A DNA stretch of 64,000 nt from Verrucomicrobia bacterium UBA1200 (GTDB taxonomy: Bacteria; Verrucomicrobiota; Kiritimatiellia; RFP12; UBA1067). A program made the position numbers and the translations under genes. This document shows positions 1,916 through 40,323 of this stretch, piece by piece. Under the pieces are notes generated by a model, which was given only the letters and a program-made list of their open reading frames with translations, ran no database searches and was not told the origin of the DNA. Numbering within the stretch: the stretch's first letter is position 1; the number at the start of each line of letters is the position of its first letter. Location: contig DBXY01000052.1 of the NCBI GenBank assembly GCA_002309765.1, forward strand, positions 84,210 to 148,209. Direction: 5' to 3'.

Positions 1916-4900
1916 ATGCGCTCCGCCTATATCCTGTTTGTGCTGCCGTTCCTGATGACCAATTTTGCCCAAGCTAACCCCGTCCCCGACGAACAACTCC
2001 GGGCGGAATTCGCCAATCCCCCGGATTCGGCAAAGCCCCACGTCTGGTGGCACTGGATGAACGGCAATGTCTCCAAAGCCGGAATCACCGCCGACTTGGA
2101 GGCGATGAAAGCCGCAGGAATCGGCGGGGCGCAAATTTTCGACGTCTCCGACGGCATCCCCAAAGGGCCGGTGGATTTCCTCTCGCCGGAATGGTACGAC
2201 CTGGTGGATTTCGCGCTTTCTGAAGCCGAGCGGCTTGGCATCGAAATCTGCCTGGCCAACTGTTCCGGATGGAGTTCCACCGGCGGCCCGTGGGTAACCC
2301 CGGAAGAGTCGATGAAAAGCGTGGTTTACACCGAAACCCGCTGCAGCGGCGCATTCGACGGCACTCTGCCCCAACCCCCAAACCCGCACAACTTTTATGA
2401 GGACATCGCCGTGCTGGCGGTACCGCTGCCCGCCGCCGAATCGGTTTCTTTGCGGGACTATGGAATGACTGTTTCCGCGCCGAAACTCGACCAGCGGACG
2501 CAACTGGGATTGTTGACTGACGGGCAAACCAAAAACGGGATCGATTTTCAGCGAAAAGGTAAAGACAAAGTACCGTCCCCAATCGTTTTTTCGTTCGGCC
2601 AACCTTTCCCGTTGCGCGGCCTGACCCTTGGCATGACCACGCAAAACCGGTACGACCACTGTTTCGTAACCGTCGAATCGGCAGACGCGGATGGCTCCGC
2701 TTTTCGTCCGTTGGTCAACAACTATAAAGTGTTTCTGCGCTCATACGGCGATTCCCCCCGCGAGTCTTACATTCCCGTACCCGCCGTCAACGCCGGCAAA
2801 ATACGGGTAAACATTGAACTTCCGTCCGCCTCGCCATATAAAATCACGGAGCTTCGTCCTGAGGCCAAAGCGGGATTGCCGCAAGCGGCCGACAAGCTGT
2901 TTCAATTCCGTAGCCAAATCCTGTACCGCCCATATCAGTTCGAGCCAAGCTTTACCGTTCCCAAAGCCGGCATCGTAAACCTAACCTCCCGGATGAAAAA
3001 AGACGGTTCGTTACAGTGGGACGCGCCGCCCGGCGATTGGGCTTTACTCCGCATCGGCTATGCCTGTAACGGTGCCCACCCCCGCCCCGCCACACCAGCC
3101 GGAGCGGGCTTGGAATGCGACAAACTCGATCCCGAGGCGGTCACCCGATCCTTCAACGCCTATGTGGGCAAGGTGATTGAAAACGCCGGCAAACGGCGCG
3201 GAGCTACCCCCGCCCGACCGCCGGCGCTCAACAACACGCTCATCGACAGTTACGAGGTTGGTTGTCAAAACTGGACGCGGGGTTTCGACAAAATGTTCGA
3301 AAAACGCTGCGGCTACAGTTTCATCCCCTACCTCACGGTGTTTTCCGGGCGCATAATCGGCAGCGTGGAAGAGACCGAACGCGCGTTGGAGGATTTCCGC
3401 GCCACCATATCAGAACTCTTCTGCGAAAACTATTCTAAAAAATTCGCCGAACTCTGCCACCGCCACGGAATGAGCCTGTCGCTGGAAGGCTACGGCAACG
3501 CGCCTTGCGACGACTTGGCGTACAGCCGTTGGGCGGACATCCCGATGGGCGAGTTTTGGGCCTCCGCCGGCAACGGGTTGGGCAGCGGCGGCAACGGGCA
3601 TTTCGGAGCCTCCGTTTCCCACGTCTGGGGACAGAAATTTGTCGCGGCCGAGGCGTTTACCGCCGGGCCGGAAACCGGACGCTGGCTCAAAGACCCATTC
3701 TCGCTCAAAGCCCAAGGCGACCGCATCTACTGCACTGGAATCAACCGCATGGTTTACCATCGCTACGCCCACCAACCGTGGGTTGACGCAGCACACTACC
3801 CCGGTATGACCATGGGTCCGCACGGTACGCATTTCGAGCGCACCCTGACCTGGTGGAACCAATCTTCCGACTGGCTGGTTTACCAAGCCCGCTGCCAATA
3901 CCTGCTTCAATCCGGAACATTCGTTGCCGACGCGTTGTTCTTCGCCGGCGACCAAGCCCCCAACTACGGGCTGGACATCGACCGCTGGCACTCCTACGAC
4001 CGCGGAGCGCGTCCGGTCGGGCACCCGATCGGCTACGACTGGGACATTTGCGGAGCAGACGCCCTGCCGAAACTGCAAACTGCCAACGGGCGCATCGTCA
4101 GCCCCGGCAACACCTCATACCGAATGCTCGTTTTACCAGACCGCGAATGGATGTCGCTGAAAACGATCGGCGAATTGGAACGGCTGGCCGCCCAATCCGC
4201 GAAAATTGTCGGTAAAACCAAACCCCGGCGGATACTTGGATTATCCGGCGGCAGTGAGGCCGACCGCCAACTCCGCGACCGCGTGGAAAAACTTTGGCAA
4301 CGCAGCGTCGAACCGGTGACGGCCGGTGAGGCATTAGAGAAACTCGGGCTCGCCAAGGATTGCGAATGTCTCAACCCCGATCTCACCAACAAATTCTCCT
4401 ATATCCACCGCCGGGCAGACAGCGGGGCCGACATTTACTTCGTGGCGTTAGGCAACACCGCCCCGACCGATTTCGAGGTTGCCTTCCGGGTCGCCGGGAA
4501 AACTCCGGAACTTTGGGACGCCGAGACCGGTAAAACCAGAACTGCCGCCGTTTGGCGCGAGACCGGCAACCGTACCATTGTGCCGTTGCATTTTGAACCA
4601 TCCGGCTCTATCTTTGTGGTGTTCCATAACGCCGCCGCAAAAAAACATGTTACCGGATTGACCGTAACCGCCGCCAACCCGGACAAGGCCAACGCCAAGC
4701 GGCTCGAAATCGTCAAAGCCGTGTACGGGGTGCTTAACTCAGACAACACCATGGACATCACCGAAAAACTCCAAGCTGAAATTGCCAACGACCGGCTCGA
4801 AGTAAAGATATCCAACGAACTCGCCGGCCGCGACCCGGCCCGGCAGACCGTTAAAGAAGCCAAAATCGATTACCGACTCGACGGGAATGACCGCTCCGTA

Positions 4901-5659
4901 ACCGTTAAAGAAAACTCCGTCTTAGTTCTGCCGCAAGATTCCTTCGCCTCTTATCCGCCGCCCGGCGGTACGCTTCATTGCGATAACGGAAAGACCGTGT
5001 TTACCGCATTTGCGCCGCTCGCGGCTACGATCGAATATTCTTCCGGCGAACACCAAGGGCTTCAAGTCGGCGAGCTACCTCCCGATCAAGTGTTGGACTC
5101 GCCTTGGACGGTGAAGTTCCCCCAGCCTGACGGAAAAACCGTCACCATCGAATTGTCGAAGCTCTGCTCCTGGACCGACCGGCCCGAACCGGAGATAAAA
5201 TACTTTTCCGGAACCGCCACCTATTCCGGCCATTTCACCGTGAACAAGAACTTGGGTTTCGGCGAACGGGTTTGGCTCGACTTGGGCGCGGTCCGAAATC
5301 TCGCGGAGGTCAGAGTTAACCAAACCGCCTATCCGGTGCTTTGGAAACCGCCGTTCCGGATTGACATCACCTCTGCGGTGGCAGCCGCCAACGGTGCCGC
5401 CGATCTTGAAATCAAGGTCACCAACCTTTGGGCCAACCGGCTGATTGGCGATGATTTCCTGCCACCGGACTGCAAATGGAAAGCCAACGGAGCGCTGGTC
5501 GAAATTCCGCAGTGGGTTAAGGACGGAAAACCCAGCCCTACCGGGCGGCACACTTTCACCACTTGGCGTCACTGGACACGCAATGACCAGCCGCTGGTTT
5601 CCGGCATTCTCGGCCCGGTGCGGCTGCTTTTCTCTCAAGACGTTCCTCTTAACGATTAA
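1916..5659 (+). CDS. large secreted exo-glycosidase, GH106-like (alpha-L-rhamnosidase-type) family
   Basis: 1247 aa with a signal peptide (MRSAYILFVLPFLMTNFAQA). The N-terminal motif FANPPDSAKPHVWWHWMNGNVSKAGITADLEAMKAAGIGG matches, from memory, the family-defining FxNPPxxxRPxxxWxWMNGN start of GH106-type enzymes. The protein is long and multi-domain with C-terminal beta-sandwich regions. Confidence 0.6.
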   Translation: MRSAYILFVLPFLMTNFAQANPVPDEQLRAEFANPPDSAKPHVWWHWMNGNVSKAGITADLEAMKAAGIGGAQIFDVSDGIPKGPVDFLSPEWYDLVDFALSEAERLGIEICLANCSGWSSTGGPWVTPEESMKSVVYTETRCSGAFDGTLPQPPNPHNFYEDIAVLAVPLPAAESVSLRDYGMTVSAPKLDQRTQLGLLTDGQTKNGIDFQRKGKDKVPSPIVFSFGQPFPLRGLTLGMTTQNRYDHCFVTVESADADGSAFRPLVNNYKVFLRSYGDSPRESYIPVPAVNAGKIRVNIELPSASPYKITELRPEAKAGLPQAADKLFQFRSQILYRPYQFEPSFTVPKAGIVNLTSRMKKDGSLQWDAPPGDWALLRIGYACNGAHPRPATPAGAGLECDKLDPEAVTRSFNAYVGKVIENAGKRRGATPARPPALNNTLIDSYEVGCQNWTRGFDKMFEKRCGYSFIPYLTVFSGRIIGSVEETERALEDFRATISELFCENYSKKFAELCHRHGMSLSLEGYGNAPCDDLAYSRWADIPMGEFWASAGNGLGSGGNGHFGASVSHVWGQKFVAAEAFTAGPETGRWLKDPFSLKAQGDRIYCTGINRMVYHRYAHQPWVDAAHYPGMTMGPHGTHFERTLTWWNQSSDWLVYQARCQYLLQSGTFVADALFFAGDQAPNYGLDIDRWHSYDRGARPVGHPIGYDWDICGADALPKLQTANGRIVSPGNTSYRMLVLPDREWMSLKTIGELERLAAQSAKIVGKTKPRRILGLSGGSEADRQLRDRVEKLWQRSVEPVTAGEALEKLGLAKDCECLNPDLTNKFSYIHRRADSGADIYFVALGNTAPTDFEVAFRVAGKTPELWDAETGKTRTAAVWRETGNRTIVPLHFEPSGSIFVVFHNAAAKKHVTGLTVTAANPDKANAKRLEIVKAVYGVLNSDNTMDITEKLQAEIANDRLEVKISNELAGRDPARQTVKEAKIDYRLDGNDRSVTVKENSVLVLPQDSFASYPPPGGTLHCDNGKTVFTAFAPLAATIEYSSGEHQGLQVGELPPDQVLDSPWTVKFPQPDGKTVTIELSKLCSWTDRPEPEIKYFSGTATYSGHFTVNKNLGFGERVWLDLGAVRNLAEVRVNQTAYPVLWKPPFRIDITSAVAAANGAADLEIKVTNLWANRLIGDDFLPPDCKWKANGALVEIPQWVKDGKPSPTGRHTFTTWRHWTRNDQPLVSGILGPVRLLFSQDVPLND

Positions 5660-5666
5660 CTCCCTT

Positions 5667-6473
5667 ATGAGCGAGGCTCCGGATTATTTCAGTTTCCAAG
5701 CCATCGGATTCGTTGAATCTGAACGCAAATACCGCTTCGAAACCCCGCGCCAAGCGGTATTTGCCGAACAAGGATCATTTATCCGGTTCGTCCCGGACGC
5801 GCGCATGGCGCAAGCCGCCACCGACCTGCGCGGTTTCGACCGCGTCTGGGTGCTATTCTGTTTCCATCTGAATCTCGGCAAACCCTGGAAAGCCAAGGTT
5901 CGCCCGCCCGTCTCGCCGGACGGGGCGCGTTACGGGGTTTTCGCCACCCGTTCGCCGCACCGGCCCAATCCCATCGGATTAAGCTGCGTCGAGTTGCTGT
6001 CCATCAGCGATGACGGACTTGGAATCGGACCGAACGACCTGCTGGACGGGACCCCGGTGCTGGACATCAAACCCTATATCCCCGAAGCCGACGCCTTCCC
6101 GGATGCCGCCGCCGGTTGGCGGGATATGGCCGTAGCGGCCGCATGGGAGATCGATTTCTCCGCCGAAGCGCTGGACATTGCCGGAAAAATCCTTTCACTT
6201 TCCGGCCTCGACCTGATCGGTTTCTGTAAACTGCAACTCGGCAGCAATCCGTTCGACCGCCGCCGCAAACGAGTGCGCGAACTTGGCGGCAACGAGTACG
6301 CCATCGGTTGCCGCACTTGGCAAATCCGGTTTGAAGCCGACCTGCAAAACCGAAAAATCCAGGTGCGGGAAATCCAATCCAACTACACCGACGACGAGTT
6401 GTCCGACCATGCGCCCGATCCCTACGCGGACAAAGACGTCCACCGCGCCATCCGGAGGTTAAACCGTGGTTGA
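5667..6473 (+). CDS. trmO: tRNA (N6-threonylcarbamoyladenosine37) methyltransferase TrmO/TsaA
   Basis: The track ORF 5445-6473 overlaps the upstream gene. The in-frame ATG at 5667 (MSEAPDYFSFQAIGFVESE) lies just after the upstream stop. TsaA/YaeB motifs are present: IGFVES, PRQ, GFDRVWVLFCFH, GVFATRSPHRPNPIGLS, LLDGTPVLDIKPYIP. Confidence 0.85.
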   Translation: MSEAPDYFSFQAIGFVESERKYRFETPRQAVFAEQGSFIRFVPDARMAQAATDLRGFDRVWVLFCFHLNLGKPWKAKVRPPVSPDGARYGVFATRSPHRPNPIGLSCVELLSISDDGLGIGPNDLLDGTPVLDIKPYIPEADAFPDAAAGWRDMAVAAAWEIDFSAEALDIAGKILSLSGLDLIGFCKLQLGSNPFDRRRKRVRELGGNEYAIGCRTWQIRFEADLQNRKIQVREIQSNYTDDELSDHAPDPYADKDVHRAIRRLNRG

Positions 6474-7104
6474 CCGCCAAATAATTTGGGATTGGAACGG
6501 CACGCTTCTCAACGACATCGACGCCGCTCTGGCGGCGGCCAACCAGATGCTAGCCAGCCGCGATCTGCCCACCCTGACCTTAGACCGATATCGCGAAATC
6601 TTCGGTTTCCCGGTGCGTGGATTTTATCGTCTGGCCGGTTTCCGGCTTGAAAACGAAGATTGGGACGCGATGGCCTGTGAATTTCACCGGATTTTTCTCT
6701 CGCAACCCACAATGCGGCTGTTTGACGACACCATCCCTACCCTTGAGCATTTTCAAAAGTCTGGGTACCGCCAAGTTATGCTCTCCGCATCGAAGCAGGA
6801 ACTGCTCACTGGCATGATTGGGCAATTCAAACTCACCCCCTATTTCGATGCGGTAAAGGGAATCGACACCCTTTACGGCACCTCGAAAATCGAACTGGGG
6901 AAAGAGTTGCTCCGCCAATCTCCGATACCGCCGGAACGGACGATAATGATTGGCGACACCTTGCATGATGCCGAAGTCGCCGCCGCACTGGGCACGAGTT
7001 GCATACTGGTCGCGCGAGGGCACCAATCCTTGAGACGGCTCCAAACCGCCGGAGTTCCGTTGACCGCAACTCTGTCGGAACTGCGCGTTCTGTTGGGAGA
7101 ATGA
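6466..7104 (+). CDS. HAD-superfamily hydrolase (phosphoglycolate-phosphatase-like, subfamily IA)
   Basis: GTG start overlaps the trmO stop. Motif I is IWDWNGTL (DxDGTL-like) and the C-terminal motif is IMIGDTLHD. Confidence 0.75.
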   Translation: MVDRQIIWDWNGTLLNDIDAALAAANQMLASRDLPTLTLDRYREIFGFPVRGFYRLAGFRLENEDWDAMACEFHRIFLSQPTMRLFDDTIPTLEHFQKSGYRQVMLSASKQELLTGMIGQFKLTPYFDAVKGIDTLYGTSKIELGKELLRQSPIPPERTIMIGDTLHDAEVAAALGTSCILVARGHQSLRRLQTAGVPLTATLSELRVLLGE

Positions 7105-7389
7105 AACATGACATTATAACGGGGCGCAAAATACTAAAGATGTGATGTTTTTAGTTGGTGGGGTTGGTTTTGAAATTGCCTCTTATGGCATATGTTACAC
7201 CGTTGGATTGATTTCTAACGGACAGCAAGGAGGGAAAAATCCATGGCAACAGGAAAAGCTCTCAATGGAAAGCCGTATGCGGGAAATCCGCACGTTGCGC
7301 CTTCGCAATGCTACGGCGGCACAAGTCGGTTTGTGGAGGGGGAAGTCGCATCGGCGGCGACACCGATGCGTGGGTCTCTACTCTACAAC

Positions 7390-9012
7390 ATGAGAAAACT
7401 GATAGCAGTCGCCGTTTCGCTATGCGCGGCGTACGCGTCTGCGGCGAATCCGATTCTGCCGCTATGGGAATACATACCAGACGGCGAGCCTTACATCTTC
7501 GACGATCCAGACAACCCGGGCAAGATGCGAGTGTATCTATACGGCTCGCACGACACTCTGCGCAATGCCTACTGTGGCTACGACTACACATTGTGGTCGG
7601 CACCGCTTGAGGATCCTAATCACTGGAGATGCGACGGGGTCATCTTCCAGTCGGTCAATGACGCGAACGGAGTGCCGCTTCTGAAGTCCGGCAAAGGGGA
7701 GCTCCTTTGGGATCCCGATGCGCAGGTTGTGACGGGGAAGGACGGCAAGAAGACGTATTATCTGTTCCCGTTCAACGTCCGGGCACGCGAACGGCTGGGA
7801 ATGGTGGCAAAGTCCAACCGCCCCGACGGCCCGTTCAAGGTCTGCAATTGGTCCAAGGACGATCCGAAGAAGGTGGATAGCTTCGGATTTCATCTCGCGA
7901 CATTTGTCGATGACGATGGAAGGGCATATGCCTACTGGGGAAGGGATGTGGGGTTCGGCAGCGACAGCGTGTCGGCGGCGGAGCTCGACACCTCCACCAT
8001 GTGCACACTCAAGCCCGGCGCGGAAATTCACAGGAATGTCGTCACCTCGTGGCGCCAGAAAGGGGAGGATCGCTACTTCGAGGGGCCTTCCATGCGCAAG
8101 ATAAAGGGGAAGTACGTGCTCATCTACGCTCGACACACGGCGGAAGGCGAATTTGGCCTTGAAGCAGAGTACTGCACACTCGCCTATGCATACTCCGACA
8201 GCCCGCTCGGACCCTTCACGTACGGCGGGACTTTGATCGACCTGCGTGGACGCGAGAAGGGACCTGACGGAAAGACGCGCATCACAGCGGCGCCGGGCGG
8301 AAATACGCACGGCAGCCTCTGCGAGATCAATGGGCAATGGTACGTGTTCTACCATCGGCAGACCGGCTTGAACGAATTCTCGCGCCAGGCAATGGTGGGC
8401 CGTGTGAATGTGACGATCGACGAGAGGCCGGGCGGGAAGGTAGCGATTTCCGAGGCGGAGATCGATTCCATGGGCTTCGAAACCGAGGGACTTGATCCGT
8501 TCGAGCTCCATGCAGCAGGAATTGCCAGCTATTACACGGGGCCAGTGCCCGCACGCCGCAGGCCGAGATATTCGTATTCCGGGCCCTATCCCGTGCCGTT
8601 TCGATGTGACGGATATGCGGCGAAGAACGCCTACGGTCCGGATGTAAACCGTTGTGCGCTCGTCAATTGCACGGAAGGTTCCGTTGCCGGATGGAAGTAC
8701 TTCAACTTCAATAATACTTTCGGGAAGAAGGGTTTGACGCTGTCCATCGAACTGGAGCCGAATAGATTGCAAGGCGTGATCGACGTGTGGGTGAAGCGTC
8801 CTTCGGCGAATGAGGGCGGCATGAAGGTTGGCTCGTTCACCTTGACTCCGGATTTGCCAGTCGGCATGCAGAGGGTGGAGATTCCCGTAGATGCACTTGC
8901 CGTCGTGAATGGCCGGGAGGCATTGTACTTGACTTTTTCATCGTCTGTGAAGAACCAGTCGATCTGCACATTGCACACCCTGCGGTTCCATCGGCGTGAA
9001 ACCCCAGAATGA
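7390..9012 (+). CDS. secreted GH43-like five-bladed beta-propeller glycoside hydrolase with a C-terminal carbohydrate-binding-like domain
   Basis: The real start is most likely the internal ATG at 7390 (MRKLIAVAVSLCAAYASA signal peptide); the track ORF starts upstream at 7243. The N-terminal PLWEYIPDGEPYIFDDPDNPGKMRVYLYGSHD is typical of the GH43 / clan GH-F fold. The C-terminal roughly 150 aa look like a beta-sandwich CBM. Confidence 0.65.
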   Translation: MRKLIAVAVSLCAAYASAANPILPLWEYIPDGEPYIFDDPDNPGKMRVYLYGSHDTLRNAYCGYDYTLWSAPLEDPNHWRCDGVIFQSVNDANGVPLLKSGKGELLWDPDAQVVTGKDGKKTYYLFPFNVRARERLGMVAKSNRPDGPFKVCNWSKDDPKKVDSFGFHLATFVDDDGRAYAYWGRDVGFGSDSVSAAELDTSTMCTLKPGAEIHRNVVTSWRQKGEDRYFEGPSMRKIKGKYVLIYARHTAEGEFGLEAEYCTLAYAYSDSPLGPFTYGGTLIDLRGREKGPDGKTRITAAPGGNTHGSLCEINGQWYVFYHRQTGLNEFSRQAMVGRVNVTIDERPGGKVAISEAEIDSMGFETEGLDPFELHAAGIASYYTGPVPARRRPRYSYSGPYPVPFRCDGYAAKNAYGPDVNRCALVNCTEGSVAGWKYFNFNNTFGKKGLTLSIELEPNRLQGVIDVWVKRPSANEGGMKVGSFTLTPDLPVGMQRVEIPVDALAVVNGREALYLTFSSSVKNQSICTLHTLRFHRRETPE

Positions 9013-9333
9013 CAAGGGCACGACTCGGCAAGTACGGCTTCATGATCCTTGGGAACGCCGCGCCTGTGCAATTTGCCATGGGCGCATCTGCGTTTTTCAC
9101 CCATGCCGACAGGAAGCGGAAAACAACCAATACAACTGGTAAAAACAACTTGAAGAAGAACGCGGGCTAACTCGCCTGCGTTATTCCCGTTTTTCAAGAG
9201 CGACAGGAATGCGCGAGCGAGTTAGTTCGCGCGCACAAGAAAAGTTGTTTAAATTAGTTGTTTTCAACCATCATGAACTTCGATGGTGAATTACGCAGAT
9301 GCGCCCGAAATCGCGCCAAGTGCCACAACGCGA

Positions 9334-9363
9334 TTGACATCCAATATGCGGTTATGATATAAT
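9334..9363 (+). promoter_or_regulatory. canonical sigma70-type promoter (TTGACA-N18-TATAAT) in the lower-GC remnant region
   Basis: TTGACA at about 9334-9339 and TATAAT at about 9358-9363, with an 18-nt spacer. It sits immediately upstream of the AAA-ATPase gene fragment at 9377. Confidence 0.3.
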
Positions 9364-9376
9364 ACCTACTATGTAA

Positions 9377-9517
9377 ACCTCCAAAAACGGAGTTTTTGAC
9401 GAGATCATTCGCGATGCACTGGATGCCAAAGGTGCAGTGCTGATTGAGGGCGCCAAGTGGCGCGGTAAAACCACGACCGTTGGCGGTCGATGTCATAATC
9501 GGCACTATCAGGGGTGA
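9377..9517 (+). pseudogene. N-terminal fragment of an AAA+ ATPase (DUF4143 / AAA_14-like); truncated remnant
   Basis: Translation: ...GVFDEIIRDALDAKGAVLIEGAKWRGKTTTVGGRCHNRHYQG*. It resembles the N-terminus and Walker-A region (LIEGxRxxGKTT) of DUF4143-family ATPases. An in-frame TAA sits at 9374 just upstream and the reading frame ends after about 46 codons. The region is lower in GC. Confidence 0.35.
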
Positions 9518-9544
9518 GGTCGACCTCAACTCCATCCCGGTACG

Positions 9545-9793
9545 TTGACGGTAGGCGAAGAGTTTTCCGGTCTTATGACGGTGAGTGGTACGACGAACAC
9601 GGTCTTCGCATCCGGCGCGACGATGACGTTTGCGGACGCAGTGGAAGGTTTGCCGAGCGGCATGAGATTAATGGCCGAAAGCAACGGCCTCTATCTTGAG
9701 CGCCCGGGGATGGTCATCATTGTGAAGCAGTTTTCACGATGGGGCCAGAGCGGGATTTGTGGTTACTGTCGTCAGCCCGAACGGGTTGTGTAA
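9545..9793 (+). pseudogene. possible decayed C-terminal fragment of a giant beta-helical repeat protein paralog
   Basis: The 82-aa ORF contains ...TVSGTTNTVFASGATMTF...MAESNGLYLERPGMVIIVK. This matches the conserved extreme C-termini of the giant proteins in this window (GLRLKYSGGTIIIMR*, ARIILGGTLFMVR*, PSGTFIMFR*), except that no stop follows the final K. Confidence 0.3.
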
Positions 9794-9814
9794 CTTGAAC
9801 ATGAAAGGAACAAA

Positions 9815-10663
9815 ATGAACGTTGGCGTATTTCTCTGTCTCGAGCCCTACACGTCGCTCGATAACAACCTCCGTCTCGCGCACGAGTACGGATTCACCCA
9901 CGCGGATATCACGGACACCCATTCGGGCGGCAGTATGTTCGCGAGCGCCGGGCTTTCTGCCTCTGTGAGTCTCGATGACAACCCGTTTGAGATCAGGCGC
10001 ACGTTCGAGCGCCACGGCATGAAGATCATGACGCTTAGCGCGCACGCGCTCCTGCTGGAGCCGTCATCTCCCGCCAACTACGCGACGGCCGAGATCATGA
10101 AGGCCATCAAGTTCGCGGCCGGCGCGGGCATCGAATACGTGATTACCACCGAGACGTTCGCAAAGAGCGAGTGGGCGAAGTCGCTCACCTACAAGGAGAA
10201 GGTGTTCATCGCCGCCGAGAAGCTGTACAACCCCTGCCGCATGGCGACGGACTACGGCATCAAGCTCTGCCTGGAGCAGCACGGTCCGCTCACGGACACG
10301 ATCGATGGCATCGGCGACATCATGGACCGCCTCGGCAACCCCGACTCACTCGGCGTAAACCTCGACACCGGCAACAGTTGGCTCGGCGGCACAAACCCGG
10401 TCGATCTCGCGAAGAAGTACCACGACAAGATCTACCACATCCACTGGAAGGACCTCGGTCCGGAGTGGCTTCCGAAGCGCGGCACCATATTCGGCTGCGG
10501 CTTCTCCACCATCGAGGTGGGGACCGGCTGCATCGACGTGGCGGGCGTGATTGAGGTTCTGAAGGACAACAAGAACATCAAGTACTCCACCCTCGAAGTC
10601 GGCGGCAGCGCGGAACTCCTCCGCGCCAGCGCGAAGTACATTGAGGACCGCTGGAACGCGTAA
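9815..10663 (+). CDS. sugar phosphate isomerase/epimerase (xylose-isomerase-like TIM barrel) protein
   Basis: 282 aa with typical TIM-barrel family features and metal-binding-type H/D/E positions (HIHWKD, LDTGN). No signal peptide. Confidence 0.7.
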   Translation: MNVGVFLCLEPYTSLDNNLRLAHEYGFTHADITDTHSGGSMFASAGLSASVSLDDNPFEIRRTFERHGMKIMTLSAHALLLEPSSPANYATAEIMKAIKFAAGAGIEYVITTETFAKSEWAKSLTYKEKVFIAAEKLYNPCRMATDYGIKLCLEQHGPLTDTIDGIGDIMDRLGNPDSLGVNLDTGNSWLGGTNPVDLAKKYHDKIYHIHWKDLGPEWLPKRGTIFGCGFSTIEVGTGCIDVAGVIEVLKDNKNIKYSTLEVGGSAELLRASAKYIEDRWNA

Positions 10664-10698
10664 AGTCTTCATTCAATCAACAGAAACGGAACGAGATA

Positions 10699-12165
10699 AT
10701 GAACGCAACACGCAGAAATTTTCTGAAGTCCGCCCTCGCGGCGGGCTCTTTCCCGACCATCATCCCCGCCAGTGTCCTTGGCGAGAACGCGCCGAGTAAC
10801 AAAGTGCAGATCGCGCTTATCGGGTGTGGGCGCATCGGCACCACGATGGATATCAGCGGGATTGCGCGGAACGAAGACATCGCCATGCTAACCACGATCT
10901 GCGATGTCGATGCGGCGCGGCTGGCGAACATGAAACCCGTCGCGGAGCGCTATTATCAGCACAAGATGGATCATCTCAAGCTGGAGATGGATTATCGCAA
11001 GGTGCTGGACGATCCGGGAATCGACGGCGTGATGATCTGCACGCAGGACCATTGGCACGCGCGGATGGTGGTGGAAGCGTGTCTAAAGGGAAAAGACGTT
11101 TACGTGCAGAAACCGATGGCCCTCTCCATCGAGGAGAGCGAGGCGATCGTGGAGGCGGTGCGCCGCACGAAACGGGTTTTCCACATCGGCACCCAGCAGC
11201 GGAGCGACCGGGGCGGATGCGGCGACGGTTTCCGGCGCGGGGTCGAGTATGTGATCAGCGGACGCATCGGTACCCTCAAGCGCATCGACGTGGGAATCAT
11301 CGACAACAGCCCCGCTACGGAGTGGAACGTGCCGCTGTACGAGGAGACGCCCGATCCGCGAGACTTTAATTTCGATCTCTGGCTCGGTCCCGCCCGCAAC
11401 GATGTGCGCTATTCGCAGCTGCGCACACACTGGCGTCCCGTCGGGCCGGACGGGAAAGTTGTCGCCAAGATCCCCGGACAGAATGTGGGCTGGCTGCAAA
11501 TCCAGGACTACTGCACCGGCAACATCTCCGGCTGGGGTTCCCATCACGTGGATATCGCGCAATGGGCAATGGGCGGAACCGGCCCGCTTTCCGTGAAATG
11601 CGAAAAGGCCACATTCCTTAAAGGACGACTGTTCAACGTGCATGACGACTGCCTTATCACCTACACCTACCCGAACGGCATCGAAATGCGGCTCGGCACG
11701 CCGCGCCTCACCGGGTTCCGTTGCGGAACCATGTTCTACGGCGAAAACGGCGACTGGATCTCCACCTGCCGCAACACCTCCGTGATTCCCGAAGGGAAAC
11801 GAGTCGATACCGCCTTCAAGCCTAAGGCGGATGTCTGGCGCAACTGCGAAGCGAACAAAAAAGAAATTCTGGAGGGAGAACCCGAAAAGCAGGTGGTGCG
11901 CAACAACGAGAAAAACCACCACCGTCCCTGGTTCCTCGGAATGCGTTCGCGCAAGGACACAAACATCACGGTTGAAGAGGCCAATACCTCGACAATCTCC
12001 TGCATTCTCGGTTACCACGCGATGAACAACATCGGTCACACCATCGGTTGGGATCCGGTGAAACGCGCCTTTACGAATCCGGAAGACCAGAAGCTCTACA
12101 GCTGCTTCGAGCGGCCGCAGTTCTCGGTCGCCCAAGCGCTGAAGGAGATCCGGCAACGCGGGTAA
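10699..12165 (+). CDS. TAT-exported Gfo/Idh/MocA-family NAD(P)-dependent oxidoreductase (ThuB / glycoside 3-dehydrogenase-like)
   Basis: Twin-arginine signal RRNFLKSALAAGSF. Rossmann motif IALIGCGRIG. Gfo/Idh/MocA core VYVQKP. Lies directly upstream of a ThuA-domain gene. Confidence 0.8.
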   Translation: MNATRRNFLKSALAAGSFPTIIPASVLGENAPSNKVQIALIGCGRIGTTMDISGIARNEDIAMLTTICDVDAARLANMKPVAERYYQHKMDHLKLEMDYRKVLDDPGIDGVMICTQDHWHARMVVEACLKGKDVYVQKPMALSIEESEAIVEAVRRTKRVFHIGTQQRSDRGGCGDGFRRGVEYVISGRIGTLKRIDVGIIDNSPATEWNVPLYEETPDPRDFNFDLWLGPARNDVRYSQLRTHWRPVGPDGKVVAKIPGQNVGWLQIQDYCTGNISGWGSHHVDIAQWAMGGTGPLSVKCEKATFLKGRLFNVHDDCLITYTYPNGIEMRLGTPRLTGFRCGTMFYGENGDWISTCRNTSVIPEGKRVDTAFKPKADVWRNCEANKKEILEGEPEKQVVRNNEKNHHRPWFLGMRSRKDTNITVEEANTSTISCILGYHAMNNIGHTIGWDPVKRAFTNPEDQKLYSCFERPQFSVAQALKEIRQRG

Positions 12166-12175
12166 AGGAGACACC

Positions 12176-13750
12176 ATGAGAACAGGTCTAATCGCCATCG
12201 TGGTCATGGCTGTTTCCGCACTGTTGGCGGCAGATCCCGCATCCCGGGATCTCGCGGGAGACGCGGAACGGTATTTCGCAAAGCACACGGTGCCGGGACT
12301 GAAGTCGTTTCAAGATCTTTTGAAACTGGCGGTTTCGCCAATCGACAATCCGGTAGCGGTGGACGCGACGGTTCTGCCCAAACACAAGAATAAGAAAGTC
12401 CGCTGCTGGGGACCGATGATGGTTCCCGTATTCCGTTCGTGGGGACTGAATGCGGAGGAGCTGGATCCCGACGCGCTCGCGAAGGGCGAATTACCGGATG
12501 TTATCTTCGTCACCCAAGCGCCATATTACACGCAGGGCGATGTCGAGATGATCTTCCGGACGGCGGCGGAAGGGGGCCATGTGGTCACCTTGAACGCGAC
12601 CGACCGTTGGAGCGAGGCAATCGCGAAACGGCTCGGCTTCGCTTACGGCGGTGTGCTGACAATCGGTGCGCCGGAACGAGGCGGCGTACTGTTCCCAAAC
12701 TGCCCGAAACTCGTTGACGGTTTTCCGGCAAAACCCCGGCTTGATGCCGAATTCCGCGAAATCGGGCAATGGTTGCACGGGATGTATCTAACAGGTGACC
12801 GTTGCCTGATGGGAGTGGCGGATATCAGTCAAGGACGCATCGCCTCGGCGGTCGCGCAGTATCCGGTCGGGCGCGGGGCGGTCACGCTTTTCGGGCCCCG
12901 CCTTTACGAGAAGCCGGATCTGCCGGTCTGCAAACGGATGCTGCTCAACCTGATTGATCTGCGCGCCCCGGCGCCGAAACCGTTGGGGCTGCCGTTCGTA
13001 TATCATCCCGATCCGCCCGAAGGCAAACCCTACTTTGAACTTCGTGTGCCGGGCACACGCGATGAATACCTCACGGAAGCGCGTCCGAAAGACCACATTT
13101 GGCATTTGGGTTGCTTCTTCTCGTGGAAATTCATCAACGGCATTAACTTCTGGGAGCCGAATGCGCACGGCTTGACGAAAGTGGTTTCCCATCGGGAGGA
13201 AAAGACGGCGCAAGGCGCGCGGTTCGATTCCGAATTGGACTATGCGCTTGACGGTCGGGTAATCTTGCGGGAACGCCGGACCGTGGATGCGGTTGTCCGT
13301 CCTGACGGCAATTACACCCTCGAATGGACCGGCCTTTTCGAAGCACTGGACGATCTCGCGTTCACCGCCAGCAAGCCCCAGTGGGACAAGGAAAAGGGAA
13401 CCTGTAACGGTAACGGATACGCCGGGCTTTCCGCGCGCCTGGCAAAAAACGCGGCGTTTTCTTACTCCTACACGAATGCGCTCGGCTCGGTTGACGCGCG
13501 ATGTTACGGCGACATCTCGCCGCGTATGGACGTTTACGCAAAGTCGAAACGTACCGGTGAGACTACTCGGCTTTCATTTATCGCCGACAAGCCGACGGCC
13601 AACTACACCCTGCATTGGCCAGAAAAGAACGACGGCGACGGGTTCCACTTCATCGCCTTTCCGGAGATGTTTAACGGAACGCTCCAGATGAAGAAAGGCG
13701 ACAAGCGGGAGTTCCATTACACGGTTGAGGTTATGAAGGTTTTGCGTTGA
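12176..13750 (+). CDS. secreted two-domain protein: uncharacterised N-terminal domain fused to a PmoA-like (DUF6807-like) C-terminal domain
   Basis: Signal peptide. Residues about 30-270 are paralogous to the N-terminal half of the next gene (TDRWSEAIAKRLGFAYGGVLT..ERGGVLFPNCPKL versus TDRWSEVIAKRLGHTYGGVLT..ERGGVLFTNCPKL). The C-terminal half (DHIWHLGCFFSWKFINGINFWEPNAHG...) is assigned to the PmoA-like family from memory only. Confidence 0.55.
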   Translation: MRTGLIAIVVMAVSALLAADPASRDLAGDAERYFAKHTVPGLKSFQDLLKLAVSPIDNPVAVDATVLPKHKNKKVRCWGPMMVPVFRSWGLNAEELDPDALAKGELPDVIFVTQAPYYTQGDVEMIFRTAAEGGHVVTLNATDRWSEAIAKRLGFAYGGVLTIGAPERGGVLFPNCPKLVDGFPAKPRLDAEFREIGQWLHGMYLTGDRCLMGVADISQGRIASAVAQYPVGRGAVTLFGPRLYEKPDLPVCKRMLLNLIDLRAPAPKPLGLPFVYHPDPPEGKPYFELRVPGTRDEYLTEARPKDHIWHLGCFFSWKFINGINFWEPNAHGLTKVVSHREEKTAQGARFDSELDYALDGRVILRERRTVDAVVRPDGNYTLEWTGLFEALDDLAFTASKPQWDKEKGTCNGNGYAGLSARLAKNAAFSYSYTNALGSVDARCYGDISPRMDVYAKSKRTGETTRLSFIADKPTANYTLHWPEKNDGDGFHFIAFPEMFNGTLQMKKGDKREFHYTVEVMKVLR

Positions 13751-13771
13751 AATTGAAGAAAGAGGGAAAAG

Positions 13772-15343
13772 ATGAATCACCATATTGTCCGGTTTGCAAT
13801 ATCAATGCTCGCGTTCTGTATGTTGTCCATGGCAAATGCCGACGATGAAGTGCCGCGCTCATTCGCAGATGAGGTGGAACGCTATCTCGCCACGCATCCG
13901 GTAGCGGGAATGGATAGTTATGCCAACTTCTGCCGTCTCGTGGCGCAACCGGCGGCGCAGGGCGCGGTTGACGCCGTCGTGCAACCCGACCACAAAGCCC
14001 GGAAGATCCGCTTCTGGGGCGCGTTGGAACACCTCGCGCTCTTCAAGACGTGGGGACTGGACGCGGAAGAATTCGATCCCGAAGCTGCCGCGCAAGGGGT
14101 TTATCCCGATGTCATCTTCTGCCATCTCGAACCGAACTATTCGCAAGGAGCCGTCGATCGGATTCTGGATGCTGTTCGTCACGGCACGCACTTCGTAACT
14201 TTGCAGAATACAGACCGTTGGAGCGAAGTGATTGCGAAGCGGCTCGGACACACCTACGGCGGCGTGTTGACCGCGCCCGCGCAGGAGCGCGGCGGCGTAC
14301 TCTTCACCAACTGCCCAAAACTTTTCGCCGGTTTCCCGGAGGGACGGCTGGACGCACCGCTTTTCGGTTTTGTCGGACAGTCACGTCACGGAATGTACCT
14401 TTCCGGCGACCGCTGTCTGCTGGGCGTGGCCGACACGCACAAATGCCGTATCGCGACGTCGATCGCGCAATACGCTTACGGAAAAGGCGCGGTCACTCTT
14501 GTCGGACCGTGCGTTAATCCCCATTCCAAGAAAGATATGAACGATCCCGCCTATAAGCGGCTTTTGCTGAATCTGGTGACATTGTTGCCCGCCGTAGTTA
14601 GCGAAAAGCCTTATGATGTGCTGCTCTATACGCGCTGGAAGTGGCATCGCGATCCCAAGACCGGGGTCGTCGGTTCAAAAGGCTCGTTCCATCACTTCTC
14701 CACCGAGACCGGCGCGGGAAATATGGCGGCATATTTCACGGCCAAGGGCCGCACGGTAAAAGTAACGGACGATCCCGAAATCTTCCGCACCGAAGGCTTT
14801 CGGAAATGCCCCTGCGTGGTCTTCGCCTGCGCCAACGAGGAACAGTTTGAGACCGAAACCCAGCGCGAAGCCTTCTATGCGTGGGCGAAAGCGGGCGGCG
14901 GAACGCTCGTCCTGCACTCCGCGAGCAATTGCGAAGTCGGTAACGCGGCATGGCGGGAATTTCTGGGCGGGACCTTCCTCTTCCACTACCCCAAGCATTT
15001 CCCCGTGCCGTTCGCCGAAGCAGACCGCACCCATCCCGCGATTGCGTGTCTGCCGAAGGATTACGTTTGGCCGTCCGAGGAGATTTATGTAAACGACATG
15101 GTACCCGGTGCCGTTACCCCGGTGCTCACATTCCGGGCTGACACCATGCCGGAGGAGATGCGGGATTGGCTCAAGGCACGCGGGCACACCGCAGTAAACG
15201 GACGCCACATTTTGGAATGGACAAAGGATTACGGCAAGGGCCGCGTTTATTATTCCGCGCTTGGACACGATGCTTCCGGTTTCGCCAGACCGGAATTTCT
15301 CGAACATCTCTACCAAGCCGCGCTTTGGACGACGGGACAGTAA
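13772..15343 (+). CDS. secreted two-domain protein: the same uncharacterised N-terminal domain fused to a ThuA (trehalose-utilisation, class-I glutamine-amidotransferase-like) domain
   Basis: Signal peptide MNHHIVRFAISMLAFCMLSMANA. The C-terminal half carries clear ThuA motifs: GGGTLVLHSASN, HP..LPKDYVW.SEEIY, EWTKDYGKGRVYYSALGHD, LYQAALWTTG. Confidence 0.7.
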   Translation: MNHHIVRFAISMLAFCMLSMANADDEVPRSFADEVERYLATHPVAGMDSYANFCRLVAQPAAQGAVDAVVQPDHKARKIRFWGALEHLALFKTWGLDAEEFDPEAAAQGVYPDVIFCHLEPNYSQGAVDRILDAVRHGTHFVTLQNTDRWSEVIAKRLGHTYGGVLTAPAQERGGVLFTNCPKLFAGFPEGRLDAPLFGFVGQSRHGMYLSGDRCLLGVADTHKCRIATSIAQYAYGKGAVTLVGPCVNPHSKKDMNDPAYKRLLLNLVTLLPAVVSEKPYDVLLYTRWKWHRDPKTGVVGSKGSFHHFSTETGAGNMAAYFTAKGRTVKVTDDPEIFRTEGFRKCPCVVFACANEEQFETETQREAFYAWAKAGGGTLVLHSASNCEVGNAAWREFLGGTFLFHYPKHFPVPFAEADRTHPAIACLPKDYVWPSEEIYVNDMVPGAVTPVLTFRADTMPEEMRDWLKARGHTAVNGRHILEWTKDYGKGRVYYSALGHDASGFARPEFLEHLYQAALWTTGQ

Positions 15344-15377
15344 TAAAACTCCGCCCAACGCCGCGCCGGCCCGCATG

Positions 15378-16583
15378 CTACAGTGACATTTCGAGGAGCG
15401 TCTCGAATCTGGCGGTGCGCGGGAAAAGATCAAACAGCTGGGCGCGGCGGAGGCGGTAGCCGCCTTCAAGAATTATCTTCAAATCGCGGGCCAAGGTGGC
15501 AGGGTCGCAGGATACGCAAAAGATTCTCGGCACGCCGCTGTCACGCAATTGTTGCGCCACGTTTGCCGCCATGCCGCCGCGTGGCGGGTCAACGATAACG
15601 GTGGTTTGGTCCCGATGCGCCAGAATCCCGTTTAAATCAAAATGTTCCGCGCCCAATTCCAGGCAACGGAAATCTGCCGGCGAATTCCACGCCTTGGAAT
15701 TTTTCTGAGCGGCGGCAACCGCCGCCCGCCCCGACTCCACACCCGCCAAACGAGTGCCGCCGTTAACGAGGCAGGACAGACCCAACGCCCCCACGCCGCA
15801 ATAAAGGTCAACGATCTCCCCTGCCCCGGAGAATGACGAAAACCACTCCGTCAAAGTCCGAATAAGCAACGAAGCGGCAACGGGGTTTACCTGAAAGAAA
15901 CCATCCGCCGGAACTTGGAGCGGTCCGAACGGGGTACGCTCGGTGAGCATTCGGGGTAAAGTGGAATGTCGCATGGCGGCACTGTACCATCCCGCGCCGT
16001 CGGATTCGGTGCAACGGAACACCACATCCGCGCCGGGACGAAAACGCCGCACGGTAGGCGAATGCAACAACCTGGACAACTCGATGTTTATTGCCGGGTC
16101 GGAGAGCGGGCAGCTGGAGGTCGGCAAAATCTGGTGAGAGCGTTCCCGCATATAACCGAGCGCGATCCGTCCGTCGCGATTACGGCCGCAATGCAAAGTG
16201 AGCTTATTGCGGTAATTAAGGTGGCGGGGCGACGCGACCGGCGGAAGCATGTCCAATCCGTCATATCCCGGCAACCTCGCCAACGCCTCTTGGAGCTGAG
16301 CCTGCTTGACGGCCAATTCCGCGGGATAGGCAAGATCGGCGTAAACGCAACCGGGAACCGGTGAACCGGAGGAAAGTCTGCAATCCGAACCGTCAATCCG
16401 GTCGCGGCTCGACGCGAGCAACTTCACAATACGCCCGCGCATAAAAGAACGCTTGCGCTGCACGATTTCAATCTGGACGGTTTCTCCGGGAAAGGCTCCG
16501 GGAACGAACACCACCGCGTTATCGAGACGCGCCAAGCCGTCACCACCGTAAACGCACTTCTCAATGGTAACCGTTTCCGTCAC
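15378..16583 (-). CDS. RumA/RlmD-family 23S rRNA (uracil-5)-methyltransferase (TRAM domain plus class I SAM methyltransferase)
   Basis: N-terminal TRAM-like beta-barrel (VYGGDGLARLDNAVVFVPGAFPGETV). SAM-binding motif DLYCGVGALGL and a C-terminal catalytic region. The GTG start overlaps the miaB stop (GTGA). Confidence 0.7.
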   Translation of the reverse strand: MTETVTIEKCVYGGDGLARLDNAVVFVPGAFPGETVQIEIVQRKRSFMRGRIVKLLASSRDRIDGSDCRLSSGSPVPGCVYADLAYPAELAVKQAQLQEALARLPGYDGLDMLPPVASPRHLNYRNKLTLHCGRNRDGRIALGYMRERSHQILPTSSCPLSDPAINIELSRLLHSPTVRRFRPGADVVFRCTESDGAGWYSAAMRHSTLPRMLTERTPFGPLQVPADGFFQVNPVAASLLIRTLTEWFSSFSGAGEIVDLYCGVGALGLSCLVNGGTRLAGVESGRAAVAAAQKNSKAWNSPADFRCLELGAEHFDLNGILAHRDQTTVIVDPPRGGMAANVAQQLRDSGVPRIFCVSCDPATLARDLKIILEGGYRLRRAQLFDLFPRTARFETLLEMSL

Positions 16584-40088: not shown

Positions 40089-40323
40089 ATTGACCACTCC
40101 TTTACCACATTTAAACCAACTGCATAATAAGTTAATCAATTCCACCTGTAAAGTAAAGTGAAAACCGAGCGCGGAAGTAAAAAAGTTATCCGTCTTGTTA
40201 CCTTGGATAACGCCAACCGCCTCAACATCCATTTTTCTTCCCCGCTTTTTCTTTTTTCGTTTGAATTTTACCGCCTTTTATGGCATAATAAATCGCGATT
40301 TTCAAACGAAAGTGAGGTTTTAA

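Follow-up and report, generated by a model that had tools for sequence, protein, structure and literature searches.

A rare, strongly diverged ThuA-like domain shared by two adjacent genes of a Kiritimatiellia genome

It is known that ThuA-type proteins are widespread partners of sugar oxidoreductases of the Gfo/Idh/MocA family (Gfo for short), while their molecular role is unknown. A stretch of 64,000 nucleotides (nt) from Verrucomicrobia bacterium UBA1200 (Kiritimatiellia; contig DBXY01000052.1, positions 84,210 to 148,209 of the forward strand), referred to below as the window and numbered from its first letter, comprises two neighbouring genes, A and B, whose products share an N-terminal domain (the N-domain) and continue with DUF6807 and with a canonical ThuA domain, respectively. 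We asked what the N-domain is, how it is related to ThuA, and in which process it could be involved. The two genes and their parts are the following; aa stands for amino acids, and the fold descriptions refer to predicted structures.

12176..13750, + strand: gene A, open reading frame (ORF) of 524 aa with a Sec signal peptide, the N-domain and DUF6807 (Pfam).
12251..12985, + strand: N-domain copy 1 (A residues ~26-270), a diverged fold resembling ThuA and class-I glutamine amidotransferases (GATases); BLASTP, AlphaFold2, Foldseek; family hidden Markov model (HMM) E 2e-123.
13016..13747, + strand: DUF6807 domain of A, a galactose-mutarotase-like beta-sandwich; Pfam, AlphaFold2, Foldseek.
13772..15343, + strand: gene B, ORF of 523 aa with a Sec signal peptide, the N-domain and canonical ThuA (Pfam).
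13856..14611, + strand: N-domain copy 2 (B residues ~29-280); BLASTP; family HMM E 4e-127.
14642..15340, + strand: ThuA domain of B; Pfam PF06283.

In a single BLASTP alignment, residues 1-254 of A match residues 6-263 of B with 130 of 260 positions identical (50%, E 1e-75), and no further significant BLASTP alignment between the two proteins is observed C-terminally to the N-domain. The C-terminal part of A belongs to DUF6807 (PF14100; residues 294-520, E 2.7e-26, 93.2 bits versus the Pfam cut-off of 27), and that of B, to ThuA (PF06283; residues 303-520, E 6e-32). Thus, the initial annotation, made from the letters of the window and their translations, correctly described a domain of ~250 aa common to both proteins and joined to different C-terminal domains, and all the peptide strings quoted there are present in the translations of A and B. 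Two findings had been named there as contradicting this description, namely, a confident assignment to a known family and a similarity confined to the signal peptides. The latter is excluded, as approximately 240 residues of the mature proteins align; the former did not come about either, as described below.

At the DNA level, similarity had been noted around 12598 and 14211; the best match between the copies indeed covers 12599-12897 and 14210-14508 (67.6% over 302 nt, E 6e-23). The aligned codons of the two copies are 58% identical overall and 39% at the third positions. This likeness is real but old, and the duplication is old. Hence, of the earlier description of the domain as duplicated in tandem, one part holds, since there are two adjacent homologous copies (the only ones found by the family HMM in the 64-kb window), while a recent local event does not: the copies of A and B fall into two old paralogous clades, each with orthologues elsewhere. 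A recent tandem duplication or gene conversion is ruled out by the low third-position identity taken together with the orthologues of each copy in other genomes.

The domain could not be assigned to a known family when it was first noticed, and this remains the case. Residues 1-275 of A have no Pfam match at E<=10, residues 1-283 of B have only a spurious match to Hepar_II_III_N (0.21), NCBIfam yields no match, and PDB sequence searches with a single N-domain and with the family profile give chance matches only (E near 1). A word-indexed search of 5.8 billion proteins retrieved 10 relatives, and when 1.84 billion cluster representatives were searched exhaustively with the HMM, 33 proteins with E<1e-3 were retrieved, 13 of them with E<1e-10. 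The close HMM matches comprise proteins of ~520 aa that have the architecture of either A or B, proteins of ~260 aa consisting of the domain alone, and fragments. The distant ones (E 1.6e-13 to 1e-3) mostly cover the C-terminal 150-180 residues of proteins of ~950-1150 aa; the others are shorter proteins or fragments with no or marginal Pfam matches.

When one genome for each of 185,579 species was scanned with a sequence pattern, 30 loci were obtained in 16 assemblies, all of them metagenome-assembled genomes (MAGs) from the rumen or animal gut, labelled as Kiritimatiellae/Kiritimatiellia or, generically, as Lentisphaerae, Verrucomicrobia or uncultured; as many as four copies occur in a genome. 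In the collections searched, every named source of the close family is a gut or rumen MAG of the Kiritimatiellae type. Megablast of both genes against plasmids gave no match, and neither did Rfam at gathering thresholds for the whole window. The N-domain is a previously undescribed and very rare sequence family.

The relationship to known proteins becomes visible at the level of the fold. The AlphaFold2 model of the N-domain, built from a 12-sequence alignment (predicted local distance difference test, pLDDT, 80; predicted template modelling score, pTM, 0.81), consists of alternating strands and helices followed by a beta-meander. The top Foldseek match in the PDB is the ThuA-like protein 1t0b (E 1.8e-6, template modelling score 0.47-0.54, 14% identity). 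It is followed by the GATase-like accessory domains of glycoside hydrolases (GH) of the families GH42 (5xb7) and GH35 (5gsl, 6jow), by 7vky, by GH164, the GH5 enzyme Op5Man5 and the GH2 structure 8u01; the GATase1-like proteins 2gk3, 3soz and 3rht, STM3548, and the ThuA-like 4jqs/4pxy are also found.

In profile comparisons by hhalign, the close family alone matches a 23-sequence ThuA alignment only weakly (probability 8%, 49 columns), in the beta3-helix-beta4 region, the same one that was picked out in the initial annotation. The profile broadened with relatives from GH2 enzymes is collinear with ThuA over 199 columns (pairwise E 5e-5 to 6e-4, probability 27-41%). The motifs paired by hhalign are listed here, the N-domain being given before ThuA.

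GxHxVTL[N/Q], with GGGxxxxH-S
W145, with W394
N-C176-P (H-P in the GH2 relatives), with T-H421-P-A
G-[KR]-G-A-V...G240-P241, with G-K-G-R-V...G498-H499

A faint likeness to class-I GATase and ThuA-like folds had been suspected from the string GGHVVTL; it is borne out by the AlphaFold2 model with its Foldseek match to 1t0b and by hhalign, which places GxHxVTL[N/Q] on the GGGxxxxH-S strand of ThuA. The further suggestion that the product of the gene at 13772 is a tandem of two ThuA-like domains holds at the level of domain content.

The residues conserved in ThuA are mostly not retained. In the 23-sequence alignment, the invariant positions of ThuA, in the numbering of B, are H308, H382, H405, H479, H499, Q364-R365 and E437/Y439, all of them present in the ThuA half of B; H421, also present in B, is mostly conserved, with Asn in 3 of the 23 sequences. 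In the hhalign alignment, H308, H382, H405, H421 and H499 fall opposite W78, N140, A156, C176 and P241 of the N-domain, and H479 is left unplaced. Judging by this alignment, at least four, and probably five, of the six invariant histidines of ThuA are replaced. The nucleophile-elbow residue following GxHxVTL is N140 in A, Gln in B, and variable in the GH2 relatives, and C176, the only invariant Cys of the family, occupies the position of the ThuA H-P motif and not the elbow. A catalytic glutamine amidotransferase is ruled out, since there is no Cys at the elbow after beta-4.

The N-family has invariant residues of its own, which differ from those of ThuA. In 37 sequences only 40-70% identical overall, 49 columns are at least 95% conserved, and approximately 25 polar or aromatic residues are invariant (H37, R76, W78, E95, D97, D108, Y118, H135, T142, W145, R152, Y157, C176, R188, D216, Q228, Y229, and others).

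Thus, the N-domain and ThuA (PF06283; ThuAB of Sinorhizobium meliloti and Agrobacterium tumefaciens; 1t0b) have the same alpha/beta fold, a collinear profile and three motifs in common; ThuA adjoins a Gfo/Idh/MocA oxidoreductase (ThuB), as the N-domain gene does, and in B the N-domain is fused to a genuine ThuA. On the other hand, the N-domain has no match to the ThuA HMM, is only 14% identical, lacks most of the ThuA histidines, carries an extra conserved N-terminal helical segment of ~45 residues, and is limited, as far as the sources are named, to Kiritimatiellae. It is a real but strongly diverged relative within the ThuA/class-I GATase-like superfamily, outside the ThuA family.

The nearest outgroup of the N-domain is an unannotated C-terminal domain of large GH2 glycosidases of bacteria from the Planctomycetes-Verrucomicrobia-Chlamydiae group; beyond the close family, the proteins with this domain (E 1.6e-13 to 1e-3) are its sole relatives by sequence. 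In those large distant relatives to which Pfam was applied, GH2 domains are present, in some cases accompanied by PA14, and the terminal region is free of Pfam annotation; the named examples come from one Kiritimatiellae and one Phycisphaerae MAG. In the joint alignment, the common motifs extend from the 'GTHFVTL' strand to the C-terminal 'KRLLLNL' helix and include the G-T-x-[VIL]3 strand, a Trp in the next helix, GG-x-x-F, [HC]-P-x-[FL]-x-G-[FL]-P, G-x-G-x-[IV] and K-[RK]-L-L-x-N. The homology concerns a part of the domain and does not imply the same function: the GH2 domain is an appendage of a Koshland-type glycosidase, only ~150-180 of its residues align, the N-terminal helical extension is absent, the elbow differs, and His stands at the C176 position; no link of the GH2 proteins to Gfo, ThuA or DUF6807 has been reported. 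An origin of the N-domain by internal duplication of the ThuA of B is ruled out, as the family is much closer to these C-terminal domains than to ThuA.

A wider circle of structural matches (Foldseek E 1e-5 to 1e-2) is formed by domain B of GH42 (5xb7, E 8e-6) and its counterparts in GH35 (5gsl, 6jow), GH164 (6t7g) and the GH5 enzyme Op5Man5 (7bob). GATase1-like accessory domains of glycosidases are non-catalytic and lack the amidotransferase triad. Pfam detects no sequence-level match between these domains and the N-domain, and they reside inside glycosidases, whereas the N-domain stands alone or is fused to ThuA or DUF6807; in A and B themselves Pfam finds no GH domain and no match to the Glyco_hydro_42M HMM.

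To describe the architectures, ORFs of related loci (denoted by L and a number) were classified by BLASTP against the domains of the window. Among the 37 distinct sequences, 19 are N-DUF6807 fusions (~521-537 aa), eight are N-ThuA fusions (~523-540 aa), and 10 are stand-alone N-domains (~256-260 aa). The identity of the N-domain is 47-59% between the classes and 66-74% within a class; the copy of B is nearer to the stand-alone forms (58-69% identity) than to the copy of A. In L037, a ThuA-DUF6807 fusion (4548-6173, 541 aa, with a Sec signal peptide) directly follows the genes of a stand-alone N-domain and a Gfo protein. Thus, together with N-DUF6807 and N-ThuA, all three pairwise fusions among N, ThuA and DUF6807 exist, forming a set of the Rosetta-stone type. 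The ThuA proteins nearest to the C-terminal half of B (51-59% identity) have a length of 270-279 aa and no such N-terminal extension.

The stand-alone forms (L002, L006, L030-L037) end with a two-cysteine tail occupying the last 6-10 codons straight after LLPPVGG (for instance, ...KTCKAC, ...ATCGTNC, ...VCGAACR, ...VCGKCS), which is absent from the fused forms; it could be a metal site, a disulfide or a modification site.

The following features of the window precede genes A and B.

1916-5659, + strand: GH106 alpha-L-rhamnosidase, 1247 aa, E 3.5e-176, upstream of the GH43 gene.
7243..9012, + strand: GH43 glycoside hydrolase (Pfam Glyco_hydro_43), upstream of the operon.
9334..9363, + strand: predicted promoter-like site TTGACA-18-TATAAT with TG, 12/12 in a scan for the sigma-70 consensus; a consensus match only.
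9815..10663, + strand: AP_endonuc_2 protein (Pfam), a xylose-isomerase-like triosephosphate isomerase (TIM) barrel with weak PDB sequence matches, candidate 3-keto-glycoside lyase.
10699..12165, + strand: Gfo/Idh/MocA oxidoreductase with a twin-arginine translocation (Tat) signal; Pfam GFO_IDH_MocA and a weak TAT_signal match.

The AP_endonuc_2, Gfo, A and B genes are separated by 35, 10 and 21 bp, and are followed by convergent ORFs of housekeeping size. The promoter-like site lies ~450 nt upstream of the AP_endonuc_2 start, in an 800-bp gap (9013-9814) that otherwise contains only short ORFs (e.g. 9545-9793, 82 aa).

The proximity of the N-domain to a Gfo gene is seen in the window and recurs in most of the related loci. 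For the stand-alone forms with available downstream sequence, the Gfo gene is always directly next, within ~15-25 bp, and its product is 70-81% identical to the Gfo protein of the window. The N-ThuA genes are found directly after Gfo (L026-L029), after N-DUF6807 (the window, L008, L011) or before a second Gfo gene (L023), and every copy with enough flanking sequence has a Gfo gene within two genes. Ten N-DUF6807 copies, about half, come after a Gfo gene. Translational coupling is suggested by stop and start codons that overlap in L015, L016 and L029 and abut in L027 and L028. The N-DUF6807 genes of L009, L012 and L020 (at approximately position 8000) do not adjoin a Gfo gene and are flanked by a GH2 beta-galactosidase of 1300 aa with F5/8 type C, by GH123, by a GH127-like protein or by a sugar transporter of the major facilitator superfamily (MFS).

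The AP_endonuc_2 gene also recurs in the related loci, and GH43 follows the Gfo gene in L003 as well. The AP_endonuc_2 proteins of the window, L004, L006, L011, L023-L025, L033 and L035 are 94-99% identical, the neighbouring Gfo proteins being 64-81% identical; as the third-position identity of the former is 61-76%, very strong purifying selection is indicated rather than recent transfer.

One locus, L008, comes from a Kiritimatiellae MAG of the goat rumen and shares 94% DNA identity with positions 10732-15500 of the window. Further upstream, 7001-7107 of the window matches 6376-6482 of L008, and the region compared between these blocks is 7107-10732 in the window and 6482-6557 in L008, which thus lacks 3.6 kb holding GH43, AP_endonuc_2 and the first codons of the Gfo gene. 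The signal peptide of the Gfo protein of the window (MNATRRNFLKSALAAG...) resembles those from loci with a stand-alone N-domain (L001, L030, L032) and not that of L008. The difference between the two loci suggests an indel or a recombination between paralogous loci. Elsewhere in the window, two ORFs on the minus strand (35301-40232 and 48852-53792; 1643 and 1646 aa) contain Laminin_G_3 domains plus PATR repeats, or DUF2341 and PA14, and probably encode surface or secreted proteins.

The export signals follow the architectures. All fused N proteins carry Sec-type signal peptides, as read from the sequence; the N-termini of A (MRTGLIAIVVMAVSALLA|AD) and B (...MLSMANA|DDE) look like signal peptides in the same reading. 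All partner Gfo proteins, including that of the window with its N-terminus MNATRRNFLKSALAAG, have a twin-arginine-type motif [ST]R[RK]xFLK and a hydrophobic stretch. In all stand-alone N proteins, no signal peptide or hydrophobic N-terminal segment is seen, even in the longest possible ORF. At the loci with stand-alone forms, ThuA (L033, L035) and ThuA-DUF6807 (L037) carry Sec signals of their own; hence in these operons an export signal is missing only from the stand-alone N-domain, whose gene immediately precedes that of a Tat substrate. As it has no signal and its gene lies just upstream of the Tat-dependent Gfo gene, it would, in the most economical interpretation, bind to the folded oxidoreductase and be co-exported with it. 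Judged from the genes, this arrangement corresponds to that of Tat 'hitchhikers', where a passenger without a signal depends on a twin-arginine partner.

The DUF6807 half of A is modelled by AlphaFold2 (pLDDT 88, pTM 0.87) as a galactose-mutarotase-like beta-sandwich, with Foldseek matches including LacZ-type GH2 beta-galactosidases, GalM, GH36 alpha-galactosidases, the periplasmic domain of YidC, and OpgG. This domain was formerly annotated as the 'PmoA family'; its fold is unrelated to the methane monooxygenase PmoA and typical of sugar-binding and epimerase domains. In the literature on DUF6807, PF14100, the PmoA family and the mechanism of ThuA, we found no functional characterisation; a PF14100 gene is mentioned only in passing, as part of an operon that also encodes two novel beta-galactosidases. 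By PDB sequence search, the closest solved relatives of the Gfo protein of the window are the 'dehydrogenase' entries 8tdf/8tdh and the C-glycoside 3-oxidase DgpA, and the AP_endonuc_2 protein weakly matches 8tcs and 8tcd/8tcr, deposited as sugar phosphate isomerase/xylose isomerase-like. We take 8tdf/8tdh, 8tcs and 8tcd to be entries of the study of the non-Koshland pathway of glycoside cleavage.

In this periplasmic pathway of gut Bacteroides and relatives, glycosides are first oxidised at C3 by a Tat-exported Gfo/Idh/MocA protein that keeps its cofactor tightly bound, and elimination of the aglycone by a 'sugar phosphate isomerase' follows (bioRxiv 10.1101/2024.03.25.586180; PMC8121099); ThuAB of rhizobia is cited as a dehydrogenase forming 3-keto-disaccharides (PMC8121099). 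As in the BT2156-BT2159 and AL1-AL4 clusters, the operon of the window combines a Tat-dependent Gfo/Idh/MocA gene with that of a xylose-isomerase-like 'sugar phosphate isomerase'. These clusters additionally encode a DUF1080 lyase/hydratase and a second Gfo protein, a reductase, and have no ThuA, DUF6807 or N-domain proteins (bioRxiv 10.1101/2024.03.25.586180), whereas Pfam scans of the five genes at 7243-15343 detect no DUF1080. By analogy, the operon 9815-15343 could be a Kiritimatiellae version of the oxidative route of glycoside cleavage, where ThuA and DUF6807 would replace DUF1080 and the second Gfo component. The neighbouring GH106, GH43, GH127 and GH2 genes suggest plant-cell-wall glycosides as the substrate; the upstream pair of GH106 and GH43 hints at rhamnogalacturonan or arabinan-type substrates for this region.

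The explanation we tentatively prefer, and regard as quite possible, is that the N-domain, as a degenerate ThuA-like module, has a role in assembly: it would be a partner in a periplasmic oxidative pathway of glycoside cleavage, not catalytic itself and binding a ligand at most. The Gfo/Idh/MocA oxidoreductase, exported by Tat, would carry out the C3 oxidation of a glycoside, elimination of the aglycone would fall to the xylose-isomerase-like TIM barrel, and accessory activities would come from ThuA and the mutarotase-like DUF6807; the N-domain would hold these two next to the oxidoreductase. In the window this would be achieved by fusion of the N-domain to ThuA and to DUF6807 and export by Sec; at other loci, the stand-alone N-domain, encoded directly upstream of the Tat oxidoreductase, would be carried across the membrane by binding it. 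A stronger version, in which N-domains are the organising subunits of an undescribed periplasmic multi-enzyme assembly, a Tat-exported Gfo 3-oxidoreductase decorated through them with ThuA and DUF6807 and joined by hitchhiking stand-alone forms, is in our opinion unlikely.

Several observations weigh against such an assembly role. Eight N-DUF6807 copies have no adjoining Gfo gene and are found beside GH2, GH123 or GH127 enzymes or an MFS transporter, so that the link of the N-domain to the oxidoreductase is strong but not universal, the universal one being that to carbohydrate breakdown. The stand-alone forms could simply be cytoplasmic. The label 'ThuA-like' supplies no mechanism, the function of ThuA itself being unknown. 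Finally, many of the invariant residues, judged from the secondary-structure string, are situated at the C-terminal ends of beta-strands 1-6, on the canonical active-site face, and such a distribution is no less compatible with a site for ligand binding or catalysis than with a protein interface. Hence, the N-domain might itself be an enzyme or a sugar-binding module, that is, a neofunctionalised ThuA-like domain, in which E95, D97, D108, H135, C176 and D216, together with a platform formed by W78, Y118, W145 and Y229, would act on a glycoside, a 3-keto-glycoside or a 2-hydroxy-3-keto-glycal, or would deliver the substrate to the oxidoreductase. Asp and Glu combined with Trp and Tyr are typical of carbohydrate sites, the 49 highly conserved columns include many polar and aromatic residues just after strands 1-6, relatives form part of GH2 enzymes, and the N-DUF6807 copies beside GH2, GH123 and GH127 genes show that the domain can function with no oxidoreductase nearby. 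Vice versa, the amidotransferase triad and most ThuA histidines are gone, most of the invariant polar residues of the close family are not conserved in the GH2 relatives, which retain the structural motifs only, and the equivalent domains of GH42-type enzymes are regarded as oligomerisation or accessory domains. We consider a role as an enzyme or a sugar-binding module somewhat unlikely, with a chance that is far from negligible.

In a different alternative, the N-domain, similarly to domain B of GH42 or the C-terminal domain of GH2, is a generic oligomerisation domain that multimerises its fusion partner and has no specific relationship with Gfo. It agrees with the Foldseek matches, dominated by accessory GATase1-like domains of multimeric glycosidases, with the nearest sequence relatives being GH2 C-terminal domains, one of them from Kiritimatiellae, and with the copies beside GH genes lacking Gfo. 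As it leaves unexplained both the invariable position of the signal-less stand-alone form immediately upstream of a Tat Gfo gene and the helical extension at the N-terminus (~45 residues, including the invariant H37), absent from the GH2 relatives, we hold generic oligomerisation to be quite improbable. A last proposal, in which the region would be a regular member of the ThuA family or a usual extension at the N-terminus of ThuA, and B a plain ThuA-ThuA duplication, could appeal to 1t0b as the top structural match and to the collinear ThuA alignment. However, the N-domain lacks a Pfam ThuA match at E<=10, compared with 6e-32 for the C-terminal half of B, and shares 14% identity with 1t0b; most ThuA invariants are replaced; the family profile reaches GH2 C-terminal domains (E down to 1.6e-13) and no ThuA proteins among the 1.84 billion representatives; and no comparable extension is present in the ThuA proteins nearest to the C-terminal half of B. 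With no HMM match and most of the invariant residues replaced, the region does not belong to ThuA; we reject plain duplication and consider it extremely improbable.

The fold, and the general partnership of a ThuA-like protein with a Gfo-type oxidoreductase, were already known. What is added is an undescribed and very rare family, the loss of most conserved ThuA histidines, an informative set of fusions, and a signal-peptide pattern giving a testable model. If the N-domain is only a structural appendage, this amounts to a routine annotation of a domain family, and overall we regard the result as a modest addition to a known kind of protein. Still, the locus offers three ways to probe the role of ThuA-type proteins. 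It provides a degenerate ThuA-like paralogue; the natural fusions of related loci (N-ThuA, N-DUF6807 and ThuA-DUF6807) tie three uncharacterised modules together; and the signal pattern, with Sec on the fused forms, none on the stand-alone ones and Tat on the oxidoreductase, leads to a concrete prediction of complex formation and co-export. Besides this, the predicted models assign folds to two regions that were unannotated or described as a DUF, and the operon would extend the recently described oxidative, non-Koshland cleavage of glycosides to the rumen Kiritimatiellae, poorly studied degraders of polysaccharides. If the assembly reading is true, ThuA-type proteins, of unclear role ever since the description of ThuAB, would acquire a defined structural context, and the operon would represent a Kiritimatiellae-specific version of the non-Koshland pathway.

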